Source: an uncultured Lentisphaerota bacterium
GTDB taxonomy: Bacteria; Verrucomicrobiota; Kiritimatiellia; CAIQIC01
Reading direction: 5' to 3'
Assembly: GCA_903896925.1 (NCBI GenBank)
Contig: CAITZM010000052.1
Location: 75,375-139,374 of the forward strand
Length of the DNA stretch: 64,000 nucleotides
Under the pieces are notes generated by a model that had not been told where the DNA came from, searched no databases, and worked only from the letters and a program-made list of their open reading frames with translations. This document shows positions 3,104 to 52,697 of the stretch, piece after piece. The position numbers and the translations under genes are program-made. The first letter of the stretch is position 1; every line of letters starts with the position of its first letter.

Positions 3104-4495
3104 TCATTGCGGAATCACCCACGCCGAGACGGTGGCGCAGGGTTGTTTTGGTGTGAATTTCAACCGCAGCTTCGCGTGGGTTGGCAGCGGCGCGATGCTG
3201 CACAGCTTGCCGGCGTGGACGGGCGTGGGATCAAGTTCCAGCCAAGCCTGCGTGGCGGGATTCCAGGCGACAAGTCGCAACACGCCGTCCTGATCGCTGG
3301 TCAGGTGCAACGCGAACGGAGTCCGGTCAGGTTCCAGAAGCATGCTCTGGGCGCCGGCGGGTTCGATGGCCTGTTTCTCCCAGAGCACGATGGGCTGGTG
3401 CATGGAGCGTTTCGGTGCACGAATGAGGCCGAGGCTTTGCCGGCCCGTGCTGTAATAGAGGTAGAACCATTCGTCGTCGGCTTCGAGGCTCCACGGATGA
3501 AGGCTGCCGCGCTCATAAGCCTGGTTGCGATAGAGCGTGCGCCGTCCGAGCGTGATCCAGCGGTCGAGCGAGAGGCCGACCATCGGCGCGGAGTCGCGGC
3601 TGTCGAGTTCGTAGCTCAAGCCGGCCCACACGCTGCCGATGCGCACCGGACAACGGATGGTCTGGCCGCTGTCGTGATGGTCGCCGGTGGCGCGCGTGTA
3701 GAAGCCGCTGTAGTTCGCGACGGGCGCTTTCGTCCGGTGCCACACGATGCCGTCGTCGCTTTCCGCGAGACCGTTCCATTGGCCGTGCAGGCCGAACGCG
3801 GTGTAAATCATCCGCCACGGCCGCGTTTTCTCTTCGGGCAGATAGAACACTTTCGCCGCATCCACGCCACTGCCGCCGACGGCAGGATGCTCGTTGATGC
3901 CCGGCGGCTCGGGGCCAAGCACGGCGCCTTTGCGGCCATCCACATTGCCCTGCCGCGTCCAATGAATGCCGTCTTCGGACGTGGCGAGCGCGATGTATTT
4001 CATCATGGGCGGCGGCAGCTTGCCGGTTTTCGGATCAGCAAAGACGTGGCCCGGCGCCCAGTAGTAGAGGTGGAACCTGCCGTTCACTCGCAACGCGCTG
4101 GAGGGCGAAAGAAACGTCCCTTCCCACGGCTCGGTCGGTTCCAGCACCGGGTTGCCGGGATGTTTCGTCCAACACACGCCATCCTTCGATGTCGCGAGGC
4201 CGATGCTGTGCCGCTTGCCCAGGCAGGCATACCACATCCGCCAATCCTCGCGCCCTAGCCGGATCACCGCCACGCGCTCGATGCCGGCCTCGTCCCACGC
4301 GCCTTTCTCGCCCGCGATGAGGATGGGATTCGCGGGGTGCTTGTAGTTGTTCAAGTTCACCGTCAGCAGCGGAATGCTCCCGGCAAGCGCGATGGCGGCG
4401 CTGGAGTCGAGTTTCGCGACAGAGGCGCTGGCGTTGTCCTCGGCGCGGAGCGTTGCGGCGAGGAAAAGGGAGAGAAAGAGGAACGTTCGTTTCAT
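3104..4495 (-). CDS. glycoside hydrolase-like five-bladed beta-propeller protein (GH130/DUF377- or GH43-like), secreted
   Basis: ORF 3104..4798; ATG at 4495 verified (MKRTFLFLSLFLAATLRAED). ATGA overlap with the stop of the upstream sulfatase gene. Motifs NPILIAGEKGAWDEAGIERVAVIRLGREDWRMWYA resemble the N-terminal blades of GH130/GH43 beta-propellers. The track's N-terminal extension is Arg-rich junk. Confidence 0.7.
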   Translation of the reverse strand: MKRTFLFLSLFLAATLRAEDNASASVAKLDSSAAIALAGSIPLLTVNLNNYKHPANPILIAGEKGAWDEAGIERVAVIRLGREDWRMWYACLGKRHSIGLATSKDGVCWTKHPGNPVLEPTEPWEGTFLSPSSALRVNGRFHLYYWAPGHVFADPKTGKLPPPMMKYIALATSEDGIHWTRQGNVDGRKGAVLGPEPPGINEHPAVGGSGVDAAKVFYLPEEKTRPWRMIYTAFGLHGQWNGLAESDDGIVWHRTKAPVANYSGFYTRATGDHHDSGQTIRCPVRIGSVWAGLSYELDSRDSAPMVGLSLDRWITLGRRTLYRNQAYERGSLHPWSLEADDEWFYLYYSTGRQSLGLIRAPKRSMHQPIVLWEKQAIEPAGAQSMLLEPDRTPFALHLTSDQDGVLRLVAWNPATQAWLELDPTPVHAGKLCSIAPLPTHAKLRLKFTPKQPCATVSAWVIPQ

Positions 4496-6087
4496 GGTTT
4501 CTTCGGCGGCGGATAGTGGCCTTCGCCCATTTTGTTTTTCGGGTTCACGTTCGGATAGGTGTCGGCAATGTCGGGGTTCGCGCCATGGAGTCGCGGATCG
4601 CGGGTCCGCTTTAGCTCCGCGTCCAACTGCGCGGCAAGCTGGGTTTTCGCCGCGGCATGCCCGGGAGCGGTGGCGAGGTTGTGCAGGCAAGCGGGGTCCT
4701 GCTGGATGTCGTAGAGTTCCTCGGCGGGATGGCGGCCGACGATGAGTTCGAGCAGCGCGGCGTATTTCTTGGAAGTGCGGGCTTCCTTGACGAGCCATTG
4801 CAGCGTCTCTTGGTCATCAACGTCGCGGTAGCAACCGGCGTGGCGCGGCAGCAGTTGGCCGGTGGCCTTGTTGACGCGCTGCGGGTCACCCACTGGCCAA
4901 CGGTCCGGCCGCAGGTTGCGCAGGTAGAGATACTGCGGCGTGCGCAAGACGCGGATGGGATAGCCGATGTCGTTATAGCGCGTGAGGGTGTGCCGCTCGT
5001 GGCCGGCGAAGACGAAGGCTTGGTCGGGATTGACGAGGCCCTGCTTGCCGCCGGCGAGCAGCGGCAGGAAATCGCGGCCCACGGGCGCGAGCGCGGGATC
5101 GTTCTTCGACGGATGTTCCACCTGCGCGGCGGCGAGGATGGTGGCATTCAAGTCCACAAAGCCGATGGGGTCCTCCATCACGCGGCCACCCGGCACGCGC
5201 TTCGGCCAGGCCACGATCATCGGGACGTGCAGGCCGTATTCATAGCACGTCGCTTTCGCTCGCAGCATCGGCATGCCATTGTCGCCAGTGATGATGACGA
5301 GCGTGTTTTCCAGTTCGCCGGCTTTTTGCAGCAGGTCAAGCATCTGGCCTAGCTGCCGATCAAACCATTCAATCTCGGTGAAGTAGTCCAGGAAATCGCT
5401 GCGCACTTCCGGCGTGTCCGGCAGGAAGCCGGGTACAACCACGTCCTCAAGCTTCTTTCCCGACTTCAACCCGCTGCCGCGCTCGTACCCACGATGCGGC
5501 TCCACACTGCCATACCAGAAGCAGAACGGCGCGTCCGGGTTTCGCTTCTTTAGGAACTCGGCGAAGTTCGCGGTATAGTCGTTGTCCTTGATGCCGGAGA
5601 GCGGCGGCGCGAGGTGGTGGCTGTTGAACGCCGGCCCGACGGGATTCCCCTTGCGCCCGGGGCCGAGATCGCCCGGCGACCACGGCTTGCCCGTGAAGCC
5701 GACGGCGTATCCTGCGCGCACCAGCAGATCGGGAAAGCTGACGAACTTCGCCGGGAACAAGCCATGATGCGTGCTGGCTTCTTCATTCATCCAAACATGG
5801 CGGCCCGTGAGTAGCGCCGCGCGCGAAGGCGAGCAGCCGGGCGCGCCGCAAAAACCATTGCGGAACAGAACACCGCTCTGCGCCACGCGGTCGATATTCG
5901 GCGTGCGCAACGTCTTGCAACCGGCGATGGACATGTGCGGCCACGACATATCATCGGCAATGGCAATGAGGATGTTGGGCCGCCCTGCGCCTGCATCTTG
6001 ATCTGTCTGCGTGGCCGACAGCGCTGTACCGGCCAGCAGAGGCAACAAGATCACCATGCATGAACTGGCAACAGACAGCGTCTTCAT
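4492..6087 (-). CDS. S1-family sulfatase (Cys-type, CSPSR), N-sulfoglucosamine-sulfohydrolase-like
   Basis: ORF 4492..6276; ATG at 6087 verified (MKTLSVASSCMVILLPLLAGTALSA), ATGA overlap with the next gene's stop. Signature GAPGCSPSRAALLTGR, PNIDRVA, metal-binding DDM at the N-terminus. Confidence 0.85.
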   Translation of the reverse strand: MKTLSVASSCMVILLPLLAGTALSATQTDQDAGAGRPNILIAIADDMSWPHMSIAGCKTLRTPNIDRVAQSGVLFRNGFCGAPGCSPSRAALLTGRHVWMNEEASTHHGLFPAKFVSFPDLLVRAGYAVGFTGKPWSPGDLGPGRKGNPVGPAFNSHHLAPPLSGIKDNDYTANFAEFLKKRNPDAPFCFWYGSVEPHRGYERGSGLKSGKKLEDVVVPGFLPDTPEVRSDFLDYFTEIEWFDRQLGQMLDLLQKAGELENTLVIITGDNGMPMLRAKATCYEYGLHVPMIVAWPKRVPGGRVMEDPIGFVDLNATILAAAQVEHPSKNDPALAPVGRDFLPLLAGGKQGLVNPDQAFVFAGHERHTLTRYNDIGYPIRVLRTPQYLYLRNLRPDRWPVGDPQRVNKATGQLLPRHAGCYRDVDDQETLQWLVKEARTSKKYAALLELIVGRHPAEELYDIQQDPACLHNLATAPGHAAAKTQLAAQLDAELKRTRDPRLHGANPDIADTYPNVNPKNKMGEGHYPPPKKP

Positions 6088-14226: not shown

Positions 14227-17109
14227 TTATTCCTCCCGGATCAGGAACAGCGCGTCCTTCGGCTCGAGCGTCACGCGGGCTGCCACCGGGCGGCCGTTGT
14301 TGGTCACCGGATCCTGCTGCGCGCAACCTGGCAACCGCCGGAAATGCTGGCCGGGTGCAAGCGCAGCCAAATCGAAGGTGTAGGGCTGCAGGCCGGGATT
14401 GGCGAGGACGAGGCCATGCTCGAACGGGCGCAACATGGCGTCTGGATGCGCATGCACGCTGAGCTTCTCGATCGTGACCGGCTCCCCGCCCTCGATGTTG
14501 AAGGCCAGGTTCACTTGGGCGGAATGGATCCCGCGGAAATAGAAGGAGGCGGTGAACGACCGGTCGTTCACCCAGGTCATATAGGCCTTGGCCGGCGTAT
14601 CGGTCGCCTCGGTGGTGCCGGAGGCGCCGATCCGCACATCGCCCCAGAAGCCATGGTCGGTCGTCGCGTTGTCGTGCGGACCGCAGTCGGCGACGAATTT
14701 CAAACGCACGTTTTTCTTTGCCCACGCGGCAAGCGGTACGGCGCAGGCGATCCATTCGTGGGCCTTCGTCGACTGCTCGAAAATCTTCGTGTAGGCACCC
14801 GGCCGGCCGGCGTTGAGTTCCGCCGCCCAGACCTGGAACCAGACGCCGTCGGAACGCGCCGGGCTCTTTTCGCCCATCCCCAGGCTGAACCGCAGTTCGG
14901 CGGCCTCGGGCATCTCGACATCCCGGCACCAATAGACATACCCTTTCGCGCCTTGGAAGGGCGGATGGATCGCGTAGCCCGCCAGCGTCCGCGCGCCGAT
15001 GGTTTCACGCGGACGGTACTGGACCCGCGCGCCGGTCTGCGGATCCAGCGGCGCCTCGCCTTTTCCGCGGACACACATCCCCACGTCGGCAGGCGCCTTG
15101 CCCATCAAGCCCACCGAGCCACCGGAGACCTCCAGATGCGCCAGCCGGGCGACTTCCCGCGGGTAGCCGTGGAGCGGCTCGCCTTTCAGCGTGACCAGCA
15201 CCATAAGGTCGCTGCCGTGCGTCGGGATCCCGGGGATGGAGAAATTCAGTGACTTGGCCTGCGGATTCTTGGCCGTCACCACGAAACCATCGGCGACCGC
15301 GCGGGCCGTCACCCCGCCACGGACGCGCTCCGCCAGACCGGCGGACGGCAGGAGATTCGGCGTCGCGGCCGCGAGGTGCTGTGCTGCGCCCGTCGGCCGC
15401 CCCAGCCAGCCCAGCCGGTTGGCCGTCCCACAGCGGAGTTCGTCCCAGATGCCGAGCTTTCCTTTTTCGGCCGGCGGCGGGAACGAATAGCAGAGCATCG
15501 CGTCGGTGAACTGCGCGGCGGCGAAGACCAGCCGATGCCGGGCCAGCGGCACCTCGGGGTTCTTGTGCTCGCCCGGTTGCCCCGGGATCGGCTCGATCCA
15601 TTTGTGGTTGATGTAGTTGAACACCGGCGGCCGCGCGTTGGCCTGCCAGAAGAGATGGCGGTTCAACCCGCCGCTCCAGTCATCCATTTCCCACTGGTTA
15701 AGATTGGGCCAGCCTTCGCTTTCGATGCCGTTGAGCAAGCCAAAGGCGCGCTGCGAACGGGCGCCGTCCGGCCCCAGCGCGCCGTCGCCCTGGATGATGA
15801 ACGCGTCGCCCATCCGCGCGCGGAGCTCGCGCGCGAACTCGACCGTCCCGATGCCGTACTGGTTCACGCCCGCAAAGATGCCATCGTCGGGCACGCCATC
15901 GCCATCGGTATCGCCGTGCGTCTCGTGGAAGAACACATCGAATTCGAGTCCGTCGAACGCCGCCAGTTTTCCGCCCGGCCCGAACCACGCGGCCAGATCA
16001 TCCACCAGCAGGTCCGTACAGGTGCGCCCTTGCGCGTCCTTGGGACAGGAGCGGCTGAAGTTGTAATACCAGAGGAGATTGTTGTTCTTGCCCCACGGTC
16101 CTTCGGCCATGTGCGCAGCGGCGCGACTCTGGCCGGCGCGGAACGCCAGCGGCTTGGTGCCGTAGCAGCCGCGCTTCACGCGAATGGTGTCGGCCTTCTG
16201 GTCCACGGCGAGGAGTTGTACCTGCTCGCAGCGGGTCCAGTCGTGCTTGCCCTCCGGCGTGAGCGCGAACAGACCGATGTCGTCGTTCGAGGTTTTGTAG
16301 CGTCCGCTGTTGACCTTGAAGTCCTGCGCATTCTTGACGTGGATCACCGACTCGCCGGACTCGGCGGGGACATCCGCCGTGATCGCGGTCGCTTCGCGGT
16401 AGATCCAGTGCCCGGCCAGATACCGCCCGGTGTGGTGGCGCGGGTCCCGGGAGTTGCCGTTGAAGTGCAACAGCACGATCTGCCGGGGATGCTCCGCCTT
16501 GAAGCGGCTGAACCATTCCGGGTTGTGCGCCTCACGGCCGAGGACTTCCTCGTCGAGGCACTTGCCCATGATCCCCATCAACCGGCTGAACTCGCCATCC
16601 CACTTTTCATAGCTGCCGTTCGGCCTGCTGGGTCCGCCTTCCGACCCGCGGAAAAAGAAGACGCGCGGATAGTCAGGACCAAGGACGGTCAGCTCGTCCA
16701 GCTTGCGAGGCTGCACCGCGGGCTGCGCTACGGCGTCTTCCAAGCATGGGAAAACGATGAGGGCCAGAGTTCCAAGGCTCCTGAAAACCGCAGTTAGCCA
16801 GAACGATTGCAGTTGGCCGCGGCGTTCCGACCGTGAAGACGCCGATGGTTGCCGCACGGTGCGACCGACACTGTTTCGTGCATAGCGCGACCCGATAGGA
16901 CTGGCCCGGAGCGGCGGCACTCCTGCCGCCGTGGTCAGAACATCGGGCGCGGGCCTTGCTCGCACCGCGCGCGCAAAACCGTGGTGGGTCGTGGCTGTTT
17001 CGGCGGCAGGAGTGCCGCCGCTCCGAAGCAACCAAGCCAGACATCCAGTTGCTGTTTTCAGGAGGCTTGGAAAAAGCCGTGCAGGGGCCCGTAGTGGGTG
17101 GTGCTTCAT
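14227..17109 (-). CDS. large secreted hypothetical protein (possible uncharacterised glycoside-hydrolase-like enzyme); start uncertain
   Basis: ORF open 14227..17109 with ATG at 17109. Codons ~16771-17072 are occupied by the nested inverted-repeat element, so the first ~110 residues are probably not genuine protein. A signal-peptide-like LGTLALIVFPCLEDAVAQP lies just 3' of the element but has no in-frame ATG/GTG. Alternatives are CTG at 16812 or ATG at 16578 (MGIMGK). The mature region (FFFRGSEGGPSRPNGSYEKWDGEF... DGDGVPDD ...) has no family I can name. Confidence 0.5.
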   Translation of the reverse strand: MKHHPLRAPARLFPSLLKTATGCLAWLLRSGGTPAAETATTHHGFARAVRARPAPDVLTTAAGVPPLRASPIGSRYARNSVGRTVRQPSASSRSERRGQLQSFWLTAVFRSLGTLALIVFPCLEDAVAQPAVQPRKLDELTVLGPDYPRVFFFRGSEGGPSRPNGSYEKWDGEFSRLMGIMGKCLDEEVLGREAHNPEWFSRFKAEHPRQIVLLHFNGNSRDPRHHTGRYLAGHWIYREATAITADVPAESGESVIHVKNAQDFKVNSGRYKTSNDDIGLFALTPEGKHDWTRCEQVQLLAVDQKADTIRVKRGCYGTKPLAFRAGQSRAAAHMAEGPWGKNNNLLWYYNFSRSCPKDAQGRTCTDLLVDDLAAWFGPGGKLAAFDGLEFDVFFHETHGDTDGDGVPDDGIFAGVNQYGIGTVEFARELRARMGDAFIIQGDGALGPDGARSQRAFGLLNGIESEGWPNLNQWEMDDWSGGLNRHLFWQANARPPVFNYINHKWIEPIPGQPGEHKNPEVPLARHRLVFAAAQFTDAMLCYSFPPPAEKGKLGIWDELRCGTANRLGWLGRPTGAAQHLAAATPNLLPSAGLAERVRGGVTARAVADGFVVTAKNPQAKSLNFSIPGIPTHGSDLMVLVTLKGEPLHGYPREVARLAHLEVSGGSVGLMGKAPADVGMCVRGKGEAPLDPQTGARVQYRPRETIGARTLAGYAIHPPFQGAKGYVYWCRDVEMPEAAELRFSLGMGEKSPARSDGVWFQVWAAELNAGRPGAYTKIFEQSTKAHEWIACAVPLAAWAKKNVRLKFVADCGPHDNATTDHGFWGDVRIGASGTTEATDTPAKAYMTWVNDRSFTASFYFRGIHSAQVNLAFNIEGGEPVTIEKLSVHAHPDAMLRPFEHGLVLANPGLQPYTFDLAALAPGQHFRRLPGCAQQDPVTNNGRPVAARVTLEPKDALFLIREE
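16771..17072. repeat. nested inverted-repeat element (REP/BIME- or MITE-like), copy 1
   Basis: Outer 18-bp IR TCCAAGGCTCCTGAAAAC ... GTTTTCAGGAGGCTTGGA. Inner perfect 25-bp IR CGGAGCGGCGGCACTCCTGCCGCCG (16906-16931) / CGGCGGCAGGAGTGCCGCCGCTCCG (17001-17025). Each inner arm is itself a hairpin (CGGCGGCA-CTCC-TGCCGCCG). A second copy lies at 47838-48060. Confidence 0.6.
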
Positions 17110-46788: not shown

Positions 46789-47802
46789 ATGAAACCGTGT
46801 AGGGTGGCCGTAGCAGGACTGTTTCTGGGTGTTTGTTGTCTATTTGCTGCGGAGACGAAGCCATCGCCTCCCACCAGTGTGACCCTCAGGACAAAGGACG
46901 GATCGAACCTAGTGGGAACCCCCATGGAGACAGATATCATCCTGGAAACAGCCATTGGGCGTGTTTCGGTGCCGCTCACACAGCTCAAGGGGATTGAGTG
47001 CGAACAAACCGCCGGCAAAACCAATGCGATCTTGCAGTTCACGAACGGCGACCGTCTGAGTGGAAGTTGGCAAGGAGAGGTGTTCGCTCTCGGGACGTCG
47101 TTCGGCGCTCAACAAGTGCCGCTCTCGCTGCTACGCTCTGTCACGGTCAGTTCGGTCGGCGGCACGACCGACAAGCAAGAGGGCTTGGTGCTGCACTATT
47201 CGTTCGGCAGCGACAAAGGCGGGCAGGTCATAGACACGACAGGCACGAACAACGCCATGGCCGCGGAAACGAAATGGACGGCCCTGGGCAAATCCGGCGG
47301 GGCGCTTGAATTCAATGGCATGGATTCCTGCATCACGCTGCCCAACCTCGAAGCGATCAACCGCCTGCATGCCATGACGTTTTCGGCCTGGGTTAACATC
47401 CGGACCATGCCCTCCGACTTCGCAGGCATCGCTTCGCGGCGGTCGCCAAGCGATCTCTGGTGGTTTGGCGTCAAGAACGGGCTCGGCCTGCAACTGTACT
47501 TGTCTGGCCGCGGAAACGGTGGCGACAGAACAACGGGCGCGGCAACCATTGCGACGGGGTCCTGGTACCATACGGCCTTTACGTATGAAGCCGGCAAGAC
47601 CAGCGCCATCTACATCAACGGCAAGCCCCTCAACGTTGTGCCCGTCACCGGCTCACTGCCAGGAGACGCGGGTACGCCAGTTCGCATTGGACGAGGGGTC
47701 GGAGCTTCGGAGACCTTTGATGGGACCATTGACGAGGTCATGATTTTCGACCACACCTTGACGGACGAGGAAGTCGCGCGCTTGTACGAAGCCGGCAAGT
47801 AG
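46789..47802 (+). CDS. secreted LamG (laminin-G_3/concanavalin-like) domain protein; only plus-strand gene in the window
   Basis: ATG start; MKPCRVAVAGLFLGVCCLFAAETKP. C-terminal LamG hallmark FDGTIDEVMIFDHTLTDEEVARLYEAGK. GC visibly lower (~55%) than the flanking sulfatases. Confidence 0.8.
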   Translation: MKPCRVAVAGLFLGVCCLFAAETKPSPPTSVTLRTKDGSNLVGTPMETDIILETAIGRVSVPLTQLKGIECEQTAGKTNAILQFTNGDRLSGSWQGEVFALGTSFGAQQVPLSLLRSVTVSSVGGTTDKQEGLVLHYSFGSDKGGQVIDTTGTNNAMAAETKWTALGKSGGALEFNGMDSCITLPNLEAINRLHAMTFSAWVNIRTMPSDFAGIASRRSPSDLWWFGVKNGLGLQLYLSGRGNGGDRTTGAATIATGSWYHTAFTYEAGKTSAIYINGKPLNVVPVTGSLPGDAGTPVRIGRGVGASETFDGTIDEVMIFDHTLTDEEVARLYEAGK

Positions 47803-47837: not shown

Positions 47838-48060
47838 TTGCCAGGGCTCCTGAAAATCAACACTGGGTCTGCCCAGCGGGTGCATCGGGAGCGGCGGCAC
47901 TCCTGCCGCCGTAGAGAAAGCATTTGGCGTCAAACTGGTTCAGGCTATGGAGTGGCCAGGTGTTTGCGTGCGAGGGATGCGTGCCCTGCGTGCGTTTCTT
48001 TTCGGCGGCAGGAGTGCCGCCGCTCCGGCCAACCGGCACGGTTTTCAGAAGGGCCAGGGG
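47838..48060. repeat. nested inverted-repeat element (REP/BIME- or MITE-like), copy 2
   Basis: Shares with copy 1 the terminal GGCTCCTGAAAA...TTTTCAG(A/G)AGG motifs and the identical inner IR GGGAGCGGCGGCACTCCTGCCGCCGT (47888-47911) / CGGCGGCAGGAGTGCCGCCGCTCCGG (48004-48029). Sits in the convergent gap between the LamG gene and the 48166.. sulfatase. Confidence 0.55.
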
Positions 48061-48165: not shown

Positions 48166-49821
48166 TCACTTCGCTTTGGCGGGAGGCGGGTTCGGCACGG
48201 AGTTGCGGGTGAATTCCTCTTTGCTGAGGTAGCCGTCCTTGTCCATATCGCGGGCGACGAACCATGCGGCGGCATCGGCGGGGTCGCGCTTCACCGAGAA
48301 CTCGGCCTTGTCGAGCTGGCCATCGTGATTGGTGTCGAGCTTCCCGAACAGCCCGGCGCGGCCGGGGCCCGGCCCGGCGCTGGCTTTGCCCTGCGGCTTT
48401 TTGGGGCCGCTGCCGAGCGGCAGCGGCAGGTAGTCGAAGTCCAGGATCATCTTCTCCTGCATCACGGACTTCAGTTCACGCGTCACGTCCTCGAGTCCCG
48501 GCTGGTCATAGAGGTTGTTCAGTTCGCTGGGGTCTTTTTCGAGGTCGTACAGCTCGTAGACGGCGCGCGGGCTGGTGAACCAGAGCTTCTCGAACTCGGA
48601 GGCGAGCTGCTGCTGCTCGTGCGCCTGGGTGATGTCCTTCCAACCGGGATCGCTGCCGCTATCCACCGGCGCATAGCGCAGGTTCGGCGTGACGTTATAG
48701 ATCAACTTGTATTTTGCGCTGCGGATGCAGCGGCTGTAGTCCACGGCGTTCGCCGAGGTGTGTTCGTCGAAGGTGGCGCCGCCGTGCGGGCCGCGTTCGG
48801 CAAAGATGTATTTGCGCTCGCCGGGGAACGCAGCGCCCTTGAGCAGCGGCAGGAAGCTCACGCCGCTCATGCGCGCGGGCGGCTTGAGTCCGGCAGCCTC
48901 GATGCACGTCGGGCCGAGGTCCTCGCCGGAGATGAGCGCGCTCGAGTCGCCGCCCGGCTTGATGATGCCGGGCCACCACAGGAGCAGCGGCACGTTCAGC
49001 CCGGGATCGTGCAAGGCTCCCTTGCCGCTGGGGAACGCCATGCCGTTATCGCCCATGAAAATGACGAGCGTGTTCTCGAGGCCGGCGCGCTCCTTGACGA
49101 TGTCGAGCACGCGCTGGAAGTCACCGTCGCAATGCTCGATCTCGCCCTCGTAGCGCGAGAGGTCGGCGCGCACGCCCGGCAGGTCGGGCAGGAAGCCGGG
49201 CACCTTGAGCTGCGCGGGATCGGGCGGGTTCTTGCCGGTGTTCCACGGATGGTGCGGGTCGCTGAAGCCGACCCAGAGGAAATACGGCTTGTCCTTGGGC
49301 CGCTGGTCGAAGAACTCCTTCATCTTGGCGGGCACCTGCTCCTGGCCGGACGCATCCACATAGTCGAAGCGGTCCTTGAAGGTGACCAGATGATGTTCAT
49401 CGAACACCTTCGCCGAAGCTTCCGGGCCGCGGCCGGAGCCATCGAGGTGATAGGTGCGGCCGCAGCAGCCGACGAAGTAGCCGCCTTCCTTGCGGAGGAC
49501 TTCCGGGAAGGTGATTTCGTCGCGTGGCAGCGGCGCGGAGAAGCGCGTCATGCGGCACGCCACCGCCGAGCGGCCGGTCATGAAACAGGCGCGCGAGGGC
49601 ACGCACTGCGGCGCGCCGGTGAACATGCGCCGGCACATGACGCCCTCGGCGGCGAACCGATCAAGGTTCGGCGTCTTCATTTCCTCACGCCCATAGCAGT
49701 GGATGAACGGGTAGCTGTGGTCATCGGAGAGGATGAACAGGATGTTCGGCTTCTCCGCGGCACAAACCCCAACGCCACACACAAGCAGCAGGGCCAACAC
49801 AGTCTGGCGGATCATGGTCAT
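48166..49821 (-). CDS. S1-family sulfatase (CVPSR) with C-terminal EF-hand pair
   Basis: ATG at 49821 verified (MTMIRQTVLALLLVCGVGVCAAEKP). ILFILSDDHSYPFIHCYG...TPNLDRFA...GAPQCVPSRACFMTGR. C-terminus DTNHDGQLDKAEF and DMDKDGYLSKEEF match the 12-residue EF-hand loop D-x-[DN]-x-DG-x-[IL]-x-x-x-E. Confidence 0.85.
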   Translation of the reverse strand: MTMIRQTVLALLLVCGVGVCAAEKPNILFILSDDHSYPFIHCYGREEMKTPNLDRFAAEGVMCRRMFTGAPQCVPSRACFMTGRSAVACRMTRFSAPLPRDEITFPEVLRKEGGYFVGCCGRTYHLDGSGRGPEASAKVFDEHHLVTFKDRFDYVDASGQEQVPAKMKEFFDQRPKDKPYFLWVGFSDPHHPWNTGKNPPDPAQLKVPGFLPDLPGVRADLSRYEGEIEHCDGDFQRVLDIVKERAGLENTLVIFMGDNGMAFPSGKGALHDPGLNVPLLLWWPGIIKPGGDSSALISGEDLGPTCIEAAGLKPPARMSGVSFLPLLKGAAFPGERKYIFAERGPHGGATFDEHTSANAVDYSRCIRSAKYKLIYNVTPNLRYAPVDSGSDPGWKDITQAHEQQQLASEFEKLWFTSPRAVYELYDLEKDPSELNNLYDQPGLEDVTRELKSVMQEKMILDFDYLPLPLGSGPKKPQGKASAGPGPGRAGLFGKLDTNHDGQLDKAEFSVKRDPADAAAWFVARDMDKDGYLSKEEFTRNSVPNPPPAKAK

Positions 49822-49842: not shown

Positions 49843-51207
49843 TCATTTCTTTTTCTTCCGCGGAGTGGCGCTGCCTTCGCCGCCGGGCGGGACGGCATGC
49901 TTCAGCCACGCATCAAGCTTGGCGCGCAATTCCTTGACCTTGTCCGGTTGCTGGGCGGCCAGATCGTGGGCCTCGCCAAGATCGTTGGCGAGATTATAGA
50001 GCGAGACGCCCTTGGCTGCGCCCGCCTCGCCGGCTTCCTCGCCACCCTTGTCGTTCGCGCCGATAAGCAGCTTCCAGTCGCCCGCGCGAAGAGCCACCCG
50101 CCCGGGCACGGTACCGCAGAGCAGCAACGAATCGTGCGGCGACTTCGCGCCCTGCGTGAGCACCGGCCAGACATCGAGGCCATCGGGCGGCAGTTTCTGG
50201 TCGAGCGAGCCGCCCGCCAGTTTCAGCAGCGTCGGATACCAGTCCACGGCGTGCAGCGGCTCGTCAATGACGGCCGCGGGGATGTGGCCGGGCCAGTTGG
50301 CGAAGGCGCACACGCGGACGCCGCCCTCGTAGATCGTGCCCTTGCCCGCGCGCAGCGGGCCGTTGGACGTGATCTTGCCGGGGCTGGGCCCGCCGTTGTC
50401 GCTGGAGAAAAGGATGAGCGTGTTGTCGCGGATTTTCTTCTCCTCGAGCGCGGCGAGCACCTGCCCGACCGCCTCATCCAGCGCCGCGACCATGCCCGCG
50501 TAGGTGCGGCGCGTGCCGGTGAGCTGGCCGTAGGGCTTGAGATAACTGTCCGGCACCTGGAACGGACCGTGCACGGCGTTGAACGGCAGATAGAGGAAGA
50601 GCGGCTTGCCGGCCGGCGACTCGCGGATCAACCGGCACGCCTCCTTGGCGATCAGGTGCGTGGAATAGCCCTCGTCGTGGCACGGCTGGTCGTCGCGGTG
50701 CCAGTCGAGCTGTGCGTCGCGCTGGTGGGTGAAGTAATCGATCATGCCGAACCACAGCCCGTACTGGTGATCGAAGCCGCGCTGCGTCGGCCGGTAGGCC
50801 GGCTGAAACTCGCCGAGGTGCCACTTGCCGGTGATCGCGGTGGCATAGCCCGCCTCGCGCAAGGCCTGCGCCAGCGTCCGCTCCTCCAGTTGCAGCCCCC
50901 ACGGCGCATTCGGCCGCACGATGGTATAGACGCCGGTGCGCACCGCATAACGGCCCGTCATCAGCGCCGCGCGCGTCGGCGAGCAGAGCGGCTGGACGTA
51001 GAACGATTTCAGGATCGCGCCGGCGCGGGCCAGCTTATCGAGGTGCGGCGTCTGGATCTCTTTGGAGCCATTGAAGCCCGCGTCCGCATAGCCCATGTCA
51101 TCGGCGAGGACGTAGAGGATGTTGGGCTTCTCCGCCGCGGCGGCCCGACTGGCCATGAGGGCGACCATCACACCAACCAGCATCGCAATCCTGCGCCACG
51201 TCATCAT
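49843..51207 (-). CDS. S1-family sulfatase (CSPTR), operon head
   Basis: ORF 49843..51258; ATG-ATG at 51207/51204 verified (MMTWRRIAMLVGVMVALMASRAAAAEKP), GGAAGGAAA RBS. ILYVLADDMGYADAGFNG...TPHLDKLA...VQPLCSPTRAALMTGRYAVR; C-terminus PRKKKK. Confidence 0.85.
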   Translation of the reverse strand: MMTWRRIAMLVGVMVALMASRAAAAEKPNILYVLADDMGYADAGFNGSKEIQTPHLDKLARAGAILKSFYVQPLCSPTRAALMTGRYAVRTGVYTIVRPNAPWGLQLEERTLAQALREAGYATAITGKWHLGEFQPAYRPTQRGFDHQYGLWFGMIDYFTHQRDAQLDWHRDDQPCHDEGYSTHLIAKEACRLIRESPAGKPLFLYLPFNAVHGPFQVPDSYLKPYGQLTGTRRTYAGMVAALDEAVGQVLAALEEKKIRDNTLILFSSDNGGPSPGKITSNGPLRAGKGTIYEGGVRVCAFANWPGHIPAAVIDEPLHAVDWYPTLLKLAGGSLDQKLPPDGLDVWPVLTQGAKSPHDSLLLCGTVPGRVALRAGDWKLLIGANDKGGEEAGEAGAAKGVSLYNLANDLGEAHDLAAQQPDKVKELRAKLDAWLKHAVPPGGEGSATPRKKKK

Positions 51208-51224
51208 CCCATGTTTCCTTCCGT

Positions 51225-51277
51225 GCCCAACACAGCCGACAGACATCAAACGCGGCAACCCTCGCCCTATTGTGCCC
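51225..51277 (-). promoter_or_regulatory. conserved leader/promoter motif, copy B (upstream of sulfatase 49843..51207)
   Basis: cccaacacagccgacagacatcaaacgcggcaaccctcgccctattgtgccc; see copy A at 46446-46497. Confidence 0.4.
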
Positions 51278-51617
51278 GCCCGGCGACTTGGCCTAGCCTG
51301 CGCAGAGATTCCAGACGCGAAAGGCAGGGCGCGCTCGCCGAGCGCGCCGCACCGAGCGCCGCTGCTCCTCCAACCTTAGCCCCATCGCCGCTTGGTCCGG
51401 ATTGATCTATCGGATGTCAGGCGCAGGCCGCGTTGCGGACGGCGCTTCCACCTTGCGAGGTCGGTGCTCTGCCGTGCTGTAGCCGGGGTGGCCGGGATCA
51501 CCGATCCCGGCTACAACGACCAGCCTCCCATCCCCGGAAGGGATGGAAGCAAGCGACATAACCATTCGCTGGCAAAATCATTCTAAAGCCAAGGCGTTGG
51601 GATGGCTGGCCGGAGGG

Positions 51618-52304: not shown

Positions 52305-52697
52305 TTGAGTCAGCTGTCTTTTCCCGTCCGGCAACTCCCGCGACCCGCGCGGGAGATAGAACTTTTCGCGGGCATTTTAGGCCCGCCGTGGAGCCCCACA
52401 AGCTTTTTCCCGCAGCATGGAACACGTTGAATCGCAAGACACGGAAGCACCATGGATTCGGTTTTGCACTTTGCAGGATCCGGTAGCTGCACCCGTGAGG
52501 ATACGGCTGGCCGCATTCTCACGAATGCGGCTACAGCGAGGATTCTGCTGGAAGTAGCCGCGCTCGTCAGAGTGCGGCCAGCCTCAGCACCACCCCAACC
52601 AACCATCAGATCGCTCCATGCTGGCAAAGCTTCCACCCGCTTCCGTAACCGACTCGTGGGAGTGCGGCGGGGTTGCGCGGCACCAGCAGTTCGGCGT

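Follow-up and report, generated by a model that had tools for sequence, protein, structure and literature searches.

A stretch of 64,000 nt from an uncultured Lentisphaerota bacterium (contig CAITZM010000052.1, positions 75,375 to 139,374; hereafter the window, to whose positions all coordinates without a contig name refer) carries two copies of a nested inverted repeat, designated copy A (16771-17072) and copy B (47838-48060). Each copy is quite probably a doublet of repetitive extragenic palindromic (REP) units, or REPIN, belonging to a family associated with a REP-associated tyrosine transposase (RAYT) and lying inside a small insertion unit. The evidence comprises a repeat family of constant architecture whose stems covary, the position of its doublets on either side of RAYT genes, and a filled/empty polymorphism at the site of copy A. 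That the RAYT, rather than another enzyme, moves the whole shell around the doublet is an even call.

The first-pass annotation, made from the letters of the window, had described an outer inverted repeat enclosing an inner one at both places, each inner arm being itself a GC hairpin, and the window sequence agrees with that description. The window has four exact occurrences of the 24-mer GGAGCGGCGGCACTCCTGCCGCCG, at 16908(+), 17001(-), 47888(+) and 48003(-), making two inverted pairs, with no further match at up to three mismatches in the window. Each inner arm consists of a GGAG tag followed by an 8-bp hairpin, CGGCGGCA-CTCC-TGCCGCCG. A repeat finder extends the inner pairing to 25 nt at 100% complementarity in copy A (16907-16931 / 17001-17025, with 69 nt between) and to 32 nt at 94% complementarity in copy B (47888-47919 / 47995-48026). 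Enclosing each inner pair, and standing 14-119 nt outside the REP units, is the outer inverted repeat GGCTCCTGAAAA / TTTTCAGRAGG. Its motif GGCTCCTGAAAA was located at 16776(+), 17066(-, one mismatch) and 47845(+), where 0.32 matches are expected in the window; the right outer arm of copy B, GTTTTCAGAAGGGC, is more degenerate than the other arms. Between the arms the two copies cannot be aligned, whereas all four REP units in the window are 100% identical. The predicted folds of both copies are long, nested hairpins, whose z-scores relative to shuffles are -6.2 and -6.5. A search of Rfam found no family at gathering threshold across the window; at this locus it gave only generic long-hairpin (miRNA-precursor) matches far below threshold.

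Two identical palindromes within one window could come from a local segmental duplication, from a chance palindrome arising at two places, or from repeated coding sequence such as sulfatase paralogs, and the diverged sulfatase paralogs of the window do yield many direct-repeat families. Such an origin is refuted. By chance 0.01 matches to the 24-mer are expected, and four were reached in none of 100 shuffles of the window. The inner REP units form no part of the sulfatase direct-repeat families that the repeat finder reports for the window, and the 24-mer recurs at 80 or more loci in many genomes, in unrelated flanks. The inner repeat is therefore neither unique to these two loci nor a piece of a coding gene family, the two findings that the first-pass annotation had named as fatal to its proposal.

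The wider distribution of the family was obtained by scanning for the exact 24-mer in one genome per species (GTDB representatives); taxon labels of metagenome-assembled genomes (MAGs) are the submitters' own. At least 80 loci were found across many genomes, with dozens of copies per MAG: at least 65 units in 34 loci in one, and at least 33 units in 16 loci in another. SMAG_U9752, labelled Planctomycetota, has at least 34 loci. Among the matches listed, the 24-mer also occurs in four MAGs labelled Opitutus or Opitutales, in MAGs labelled Chthoniobacteraceae, Verrucomicrobiae, Prosthecobacter and Lentisphaerae, and in one Solirubrobacterales contig. An exact 24-mer that is multi-copy in MAGs of several phylum and order labels does not fit the earlier description of the element as lineage-specific. 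The 24-mer is absent from viral contigs. Six viral-contig matches to the outer 17-mer were dismissed as chance, as they lie in AT-rich DNA and have no inverted partner.

The architecture of the family is uniform, and its units are overwhelmingly in pairs. All 51 doublets, 49 among the matches listed plus the two in the window, are arranged "+ then -" with their GGAG tags outward, and the tags-inward arrangement of the 24-mer was seen in 0 of these 51. Spacers cluster by genome: those of SMAG_U9752 measure 19-23 nt, those of the Opitutus MAGs 32-49 nt, and those of the window and the Lentisphaerae-labelled MAG 69-91 nt. Sequences flanking the doublets are unrelated, but A is favored directly before GGAG (96 of 143 units). 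Stem pairing is kept in 96% of stem cells among 28 distinct unit variants, with compensatory changes at two of the eight stem pairs, C-G to G-C in five variants and G-C to A-T in four; the double-change variants are CGGCGACA..TGTCGCCG and GGGCGGCA..TGCCGCCC. The GGAG tag is retained in 22 of the 28 distinct variants and in 105 exact copies. Pairing of the GGAG tag with the CTCC loop in a 4-bp helix was considered as an alternative and rejected, since it shows no covariation across variants. Placement relative to genes was estimated with a crude, greedy model of open reading frames (ORFs) that is unreliable in G+C-rich DNA, and that puts the doublets of contig L018, described below, into a spurious antisense ORF; by that model 59% of units fall inside ORFs covering 89% of the DNA, mostly near ORF ends, which would amount to a depletion of units within ORFs. 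The copy B locus is found in two independent assemblies (L081 9030-9100 and L082 2574-2621), both of which break off inside the element just past the first REP unit. Such breaks are as expected for a multi-copy or hairpin-forming repeat, and point to more copies in the host.

RAYTs are HUH/Y1 nucleases related to the TnpA proteins of IS200/IS605. In L018, from an Opitutus MAG, two exact doublets 670 nt apart have between them an ORF of 211 codons (5001-5636 of that contig). Its product passes the Pfam model Y1_Tnp (27.1 bits, cutoff 23) and matches the NCBIfam model REP_Tyr_transpos (REP-associated tyrosine transposase) with E = 2.4e-22. Its four matches by sequence in the PDB belong to ISDra2 TnpA and E. 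coli TnpA-REP (4er8). A database search with the protein returned 1842 relatives, many of them called RayT by JGI or NCBI, and in an alignment of eight sequences the HUH motif MPNH(L/V)H and the catalytic Tyr in WQ(R/K)DYFDRL are invariant. Three relatives repeat the arrangement. Doublets of the exact 24-mer flank the RAYT gene on either side in L091 (84% identity). Doublets of a compensatory variant, GGAGCGGCGACACTCYTGTCGCCG, do so in L092 (62%), with one extra doublet downstream. The 1.2-kb contig L093 (69%) has a full variant doublet downstream and, upstream, just one degenerate unit. All four loci come from genomes or metagenomes other than that of the window.

Because doublets of the family flank a HUH/Y1 RAYT of about 211 residues at four independent loci, on both sides in all but L093, the inner arms are read as REP units and each pair as a REPIN, in line with the first-pass suggestion of a REP-like or BIME-like (bacterial interspersed mosaic element) palindrome. 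More distant RAYT relatives, at about 55% identity, adjoin other hairpins that are likewise GGAG-tagged. Judged from these loci, the repeat appears to vary in step with the transposase, as expected for a cognate REP-RAYT pair (a "REPtron"). This RAYT clade is common in Verrucomicrobiota-like genomes of the Planctomycetes-Verrucomicrobia-Chlamydiae (PVC) group, and the GGAG family is its cognate repeat. The further statement that the element is "not attributable to any annotated family" is not supported: the repeat flanks transposase genes that Pfam, NCBIfam and JGI annotate as REP-associated, and REPs of Opitutus and planctomycetes were described in 2013 (PMC3733652).

Copy A interrupts a gene, and an orthologous site without it is available. 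The closest compared ortholog of the interrupted gene (P0121), at 88% amino acid identity, is found on contigs L096 and L097 from two sequencing runs. It reads ...CTTTTTCCAA-TGG-TTGGAACTTTGGCC..., where the minus strand of the window reads ...CTTTTTCCAA-[GCCTCCTGAAAAC ... GTTTTCAGGAGCC]-TTGGAACTCTGGCC...; at the junction, TTTTTCCAA-TGG-TTGGAAC in L096/L097 stands against TTTTTCCAA-[291 nt]-TTGGAAC in the window. The flanks of the site align to the ortholog gap-free, at 82% and 79% identity. Copy A thus represents 291 nt in the window against 3 nt in the ortholog, a net gain of 288 nt or 96 codons, and the boundaries of the indel are the outer arms themselves, 13-bp ends that are complementary at 12 of 13 positions. 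The additional 96 residues are likewise missing from two other orthologs, at 83% and 78% identity, and by parsimony the filled state of copy A appears to be the derived one. Comparison of these sequences supports the view that copy A behaves as a discrete insertion resembling a miniature inverted-repeat transposable element (MITE) and bounded by the outer repeat, much as the first-pass annotation proposed. Its 18-bp outer repeat needs trimming: the 13-bp ends hold, whereas the outermost TCCAA/TTGGA is already present in the element-free ortholog, so that the inserted unit runs from 16776 to 17066.

Across the window and about 100 further loci, the outer arms are restricted to three copies: A, B, and one in L073, from the Lentisphaerae-labelled MAG Loclat_bin-07389, which reads TTCCAAGGCTCCTGAAA...GGTTTTCAGGAACC. 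The window derives from the metagenome of a stratified lake (ENA ERZ18647913, BUCK21-1), and its host is probably related to Loclat_bin-07389. All three outer shells enclose a doublet, measure 203-291 nt, and have no coding capacity. In all three, CCA(A/G)GGC precedes TCCTGAAA, as could be expected from a preferred target and equally from ends that extend further. A search of JGI metagenomes with the composite pattern of outer arm plus REP gave one match, inside a coding region and attributed to chance. The corresponding comparison of sites is uninformative for copy B, where relatives at 82% identity diverge 22 nt past the LamG stop and continue into other downstream genes. Two roles for the outer arms were tried and rejected. 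An origin as remnants of a REP tag plus its flank was dropped because just 6 of 140 units have "TCA" ahead of GGAG, which is no enrichment, and a Shine-Dalgarno role for the AGGAG in the outer arm because its distance from any start codon is wrong in copy A and L073.

The outer shell invites a second explanation. The 13-bp outer repeats may be the terminal inverted repeats of a conventional MITE, served by a DDE transposase (for example IS5-like) that makes a 3-4-bp target duplication, with the REP doublet as a passenger or a later insertion. The coincidence of the indel boundaries of copy A with the outer arms agrees with this, as do the size of the units and their lack of coding capacity, the absence of outer arms from all other REP doublets, and the GGC/GGC (copy A) and GGGC/GGGC (copy B) that abut the core TCCTGAAAA / TTTTCAGRA. 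Against a MITE with a passenger, the sequence between the arms resists alignment among the three copies, yet the four REP units of the window are identical, a pattern that fits REPIN populations. A doublet is present inside all three shells, and no parent insertion sequence with these ends was found in the window or among the roughly 100 loci. Copies A and B show putative duplications of unequal length, and L073 has no flanking direct repeat; with direct repeats at A and B but not at L073, the case for target duplication is weak and inconsistent. We regard a conventional MITE as unlikely.

A REPIN inside a RAYT-mobilized unit nevertheless has several observations to contend with. The direct repeats that abut the arms in copies A and B could be target duplications, and they weigh against that reading because a Y1 transposase would make none. 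The outer arms are missing from the other 50 or so doublets, and they are conserved although the sequence between arm and REP has diverged, which simple REPIN models do not explain. A precise deletion in the ortholog, instead of an insertion in the window, cannot be separated with certainty, and the TTCCAA...TTGGAA of the "empty" site may have served as a palindromic target or may be what is left of a longer terminal repeat. In place of the canonical GTAG the tag reads GGAG, with A3 and G4 retained. At 79.4 bits against a cutoff of 80, the L018 protein falls just under the NCBIfam threshold. No RAYT gene was found by tblastn in the 64-kb window, which has only two doublets, and the Lentisphaerae-labelled MAG has one or two among the matches listed.

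The mechanism that we propose for the REPIN reading draws on analogy with studied RAYTs (PMC3116915, PMC8266576). In each REP unit a GGAG tag stands 5' of a G+C-rich stem of 8 bp that is capped by a 4-nt loop, and a tags-outward pair makes a REPIN. The hairpins would form in single-stranded DNA, where a RAYT dimer supplied in trans would bind tag and hairpin. Positions 3 and 4 of the tag select the CT cleavage site in the studied system (PMC8266576); here A3 and G4 would likewise direct cleavage to CT dinucleotides lying 5' or 3' of the hairpin. The doublet strand would then be excised or copied, and joined at a new site without target duplication. In the lineage of the window, the doublet sits in a larger palindromic shell ending in GGCTCCTGAAAAC / GTTTTCAGGAGCC, and at copy A the inserted unit is the whole shell. 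Each outer arm has two CT dinucleotides, on the strand bearing the tag of the neighboring REP, and the right boundary of copy A falls between C and T (17066 | 17067). Because of these CT dinucleotides and that C|T boundary, the outer arms are plausible distal cleavage sites, a hypothesis built on three copies. We infer that these particular copies are mobilized by a RAYT, that a gene for such an enzyme is present in the host, and that the cleavage sites lie in the outer arms. A fuller version remains doubtful. It would hold that the unit mobilized by RAYT here is a two-layer palindrome, that the outer arms GGCTCCTGAAAAC are distal cleavage or joining sites chosen by the GGAG tags, and that the identity of the 24-mer across phylum labels reflects either horizontal spread of the REPIN-RAYT system or extreme conservation.

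The two copies differ in their relation to genes, and the first-pass placement of both at gene boundaries is right for copy B only. Copy B lies between convergent genes, with the stop of the LamG gene at 47802 (+) and that of a sulfatase with EF-hand motifs at 48166 (-). Copy A falls within what was the ancestral reading frame, 14 codons past a conserved ATG common to window and ortholog. The window gene starts ATGAAGCACCAC..., giving MKHHPLRAPARLFP; the ortholog has MKNHARQPPARLFP followed directly by MVGTLALVLFQGLETIAAQP, and the two combine into an ordinary signal peptide. In the window, the basic N-terminus is set apart from the hydrophobic core LGTLALIVFPCLEDAVAQP by the 96 in-frame, stop-free codons that the element adds. 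Should an internal ATG be the start of the ortholog, as in its gene call, copy A sits exactly on the start codon and has removed it. Under either start the 5' end of the gene is altered, and the remaining 850 codons look intact. Since two of the six frames of copy A are open, the in-frame open state is not strong evidence of selection, and it could be survivorship or chance.

These positions bear on a third explanation, in which the hairpin is an RNA-level element (a transcript-end stabilizer, a terminator or a translational modulator) kept by selection, with mobility incidental. Copy B, right past two stop codons between convergent genes, suits such a role, as do the many family members a few bases past stop codons and the strong predicted folds (z about -6); REPs in other bacteria are documented in such roles (reviewed in PMC3733652). 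Yet no T-run follows the stems, a terminator scan did not rise above shuffle level, Rfam has no match above threshold, and copy A is within a coding region. An RNA role also accounts neither for the flanking of RAYT genes nor for the insertion polymorphism, and as the full explanation it is very unlikely. It is not exclusive of a RAYT-associated REPIN, for which secondary effects on transcripts, such as 3'-end stabilization at copy B, are possible.

Table 1. Features of copies A and B and of the gene that contains copy A, in window coordinates.
Feature	Coordinates	Strand	Remarks
ORF that copy A interrupts, coding for a conserved, secreted hypothetical protein of ~850 aa	14227..17109	-	ATG at 17107-17109
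Copy A, whole inserted unit, 291 nt	16776..17066	.	3 nt in ortholog contigs L096/L097
Copy A, left outer arm	16776..16788	+	GGCTCCTGAAAAC
Copy A, left REP unit	16908..16931	+	GGAG tag, stem CGGCGGCA/TGCCGCCG, loop CTCC
Copy A, spacer, 69 nt	16932..17000	.	no conservation between A and B
Copy A, right REP unit	17001..17024	-	reverse complement of the 24-mer
Copy A, right outer arm	17054..17066	+	GTTTTCAGGAGGC, 12/13 complementary to left arm
Copy B, left outer arm	47845..47857	+	GGCTCCTGAAAAT
Copy B, left REP unit	47888..47911	+	
Copy B, spacer, 91 nt	47912..48002	.	unrelated to copy A spacer
Copy B, right REP unit	48003..48026	-	
Copy B, right outer arm	48041..48054	+	GTTTTCAGAAGGGC, degenerate

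The protein encoded by 14227-16775(-) has no Pfam domain and 768 homologs at E <= 1e-20, several of them in MAGs labelled Verrucomicrobia, Opitutaceae, Lentisphaeria or Planctomycetes. Its gene adjoins sulfatases in the window and in the closest relatives, and its conserved product is possibly active on carbohydrates. Diverged sulfatase paralogs, most of them encoded on the minus strand, are densely arrayed along the whole window (e.g. 5180-63913). Its direct-repeat families D1-D20, with up to 19 copies each, correspond to conserved sulfatase motifs and signal-peptide segments, not to mobile DNA. Upstream of the 78% ortholog, at 3600-3800 of L095, a unit of about 44 nt, cattgcagagatcccggcgaacggtgggcgtcagcccatcggtg, is repeated head to tail beside a masked run of N.

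Other repeats were noted in the window and in the genomes that share the family. At 3780-4225, L009 has a tandem duplication, with the two copies 311 nt apart, of a REP doublet together with some 45 nt of its left flank. A decayed doublet at 2145-2275 of L094, upstream of another ortholog of the gene interrupted by copy A, has a differently shaped extended arm, AGCTGGGAGCGG... / ...CCGCTCCCAGTT; its AGCTG flank also precedes a single REP unit in L015, and the two may belong to a second subfamily with extended ends of its own. The window itself has a different REP-like doublet at 52505-52583. It is made of two GTAG hairpins, GTAG-GCCGCATTC-GTGA-GAATGCGGC and GTAG-CCGCGCTC-GTCA-GAGTGCGG, with 30-nt arms that are 87% complementary and with tags that face each other over a 19-nt spacer. 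The host probably carries at least two REP families. A GTAG...CTAC palindrome, GTAGCCGGGGTGGCCGGGATCACCGATCCCGGCTAC, lies at 51480-51516 in the gap upstream of the sulfatase gene 49843-51258(-). GTAG hairpins with the same CGGCGGC stem are found beside GGAG ones at L015 1955-1985 and L083 5109-5132 (GTAG-CGGCGGC-TTGGG-GCCGCCG; GTAGCGGCGGCGCCCCCGCCGCCG), about 150 nt from an exact 24-mer in L015 and about 2 kb from a GGAG hairpin of another type in L083. The shared stem suggests that the GGAG family may have branched off GTAG REPs.

To our knowledge, REPIN-RAYT systems have been studied almost only in Gammaproteobacteria, and we know of no description of a two-layer architecture with an outer shell for REPINs. 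The present results add to the PVC bacteria a widespread GGAG-tagged REP/REPIN family and its cognate RAYT clade. Copy A is a clean natural case of in-frame insertion into the coding region for a signal peptide, and the true start of such a gene is easily missed in gene calling. Contigs break at these repeats, which is of relevance to assembly. The identical 24-mer and the outer shell could help to test the choice of cleavage site by RAYTs and any movement of these systems between lineages; horizontal spread or extreme conservation, if true, would bear on the view that REPIN-RAYT inheritance is purely vertical. The REP/REPIN-RAYT class as such is well known, the repeat is recognizable as one of its members, and annotation pipelines already have a name for the transposase clade. 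Three features seem to depart from the standard account: the outer-arm shell that bounds the inserted unit, the in-frame landing in a signal peptide, and the occurrence of one identical 24-mer under different phylum labels, for which horizontal transfer, extreme constraint or mislabelling may be responsible.

Comparison with described systems places the family as follows. REPINs are inverted REP doublets with less conserved spacers, and those of Pseudomonas fluorescens SBW25 have two conserved inverted REP units of about 25 nt, a less conserved spacer and a long hairpin (Bertels & Rainey 2011, PMC3116915), as do the doublets here. Shared with them are dispersed copies, units flanking a Y1 transposase gene, presence/absence polymorphism, and spacer lengths in genome-specific classes (71 nt in SBW25 group I, PMC3116915; 69 and 91 nt in the window). 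Unlike SBW25 REPINs, the present family has a GGAG rather than a GTAG tag, occurs in PVC-type hosts rather than Gammaproteobacteria, and in the window has an extra outer inverted repeat, which bounds the inserted unit of copy A.

Another of the closest known systems is the GTAG super-family, which includes GTAG-17 to GTAG-20 of Opitutus terrae and REPs of Rhodopirellula baltica; the REP families and REPtrons of Opitutus terrae and planctomycetes were catalogued in 2013 (PMC3733652). Its members likewise have a stem-loop with an unpaired 5' tetranucleotide and form tail-to-tail dimers with variable spacers. Their stems are 6-9 bp (PMC3733652), against 8 bp in the 24-nt unit here, their RAYT genes are flanked by REPs, and degeneracy at tag positions 2 and 3 has been described (PMC3733652). 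In-gene REPs are known there too, with most such insertions in O. terrae, and genes of Opitutus terrae and Rickettsia are known to have received REPs in frame (PMC3733652). GGAG does not appear in the text of PMC3733652, nor the 24-mer in its text and supplements, and a literature search for the 24-mer or its hairpin found no paper; this specific GGAG-tagged family seems undescribed.

The E. coli REP/BIME system with TnpA-REP (4ER8; Corneloup et al. 2021, PMC8266576) shares the HUH/Y1 fold, by sequence match. There a tag 5' of the foot of the hairpin is thought to guide cleavage at CT (PMC8266576), and A3 and G4 of that tag are kept here. E. coli REPs have a bulged stem and alternate as Y and Z types in BIMEs, whereas the present family has a perfect stem and a single unit type. 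In our alignment the PVC RAYT, at about 211 residues, also differs from E. coli TnpA-REP by an insertion of about 55 residues past the first strand. Rickettsia palindromic elements (RPEs; cited in PMC3733652) resemble copy A in lying in frame and stop-free within a gene that is otherwise apparently intact; they differ in having a CGTC tag and no known transposase, and a single in-gene case was seen here. Bacterial MITEs such as RUP, NEMIS/Correia and ERIC are similar in being 200-300 bp long and non-coding, with terminal inverted repeats and strong hairpins, and in lying next to or within genes. The present copies are set apart from them by being alike in their arms only, by inconsistent target duplication, and by a core that is a RAYT-type REP doublet.

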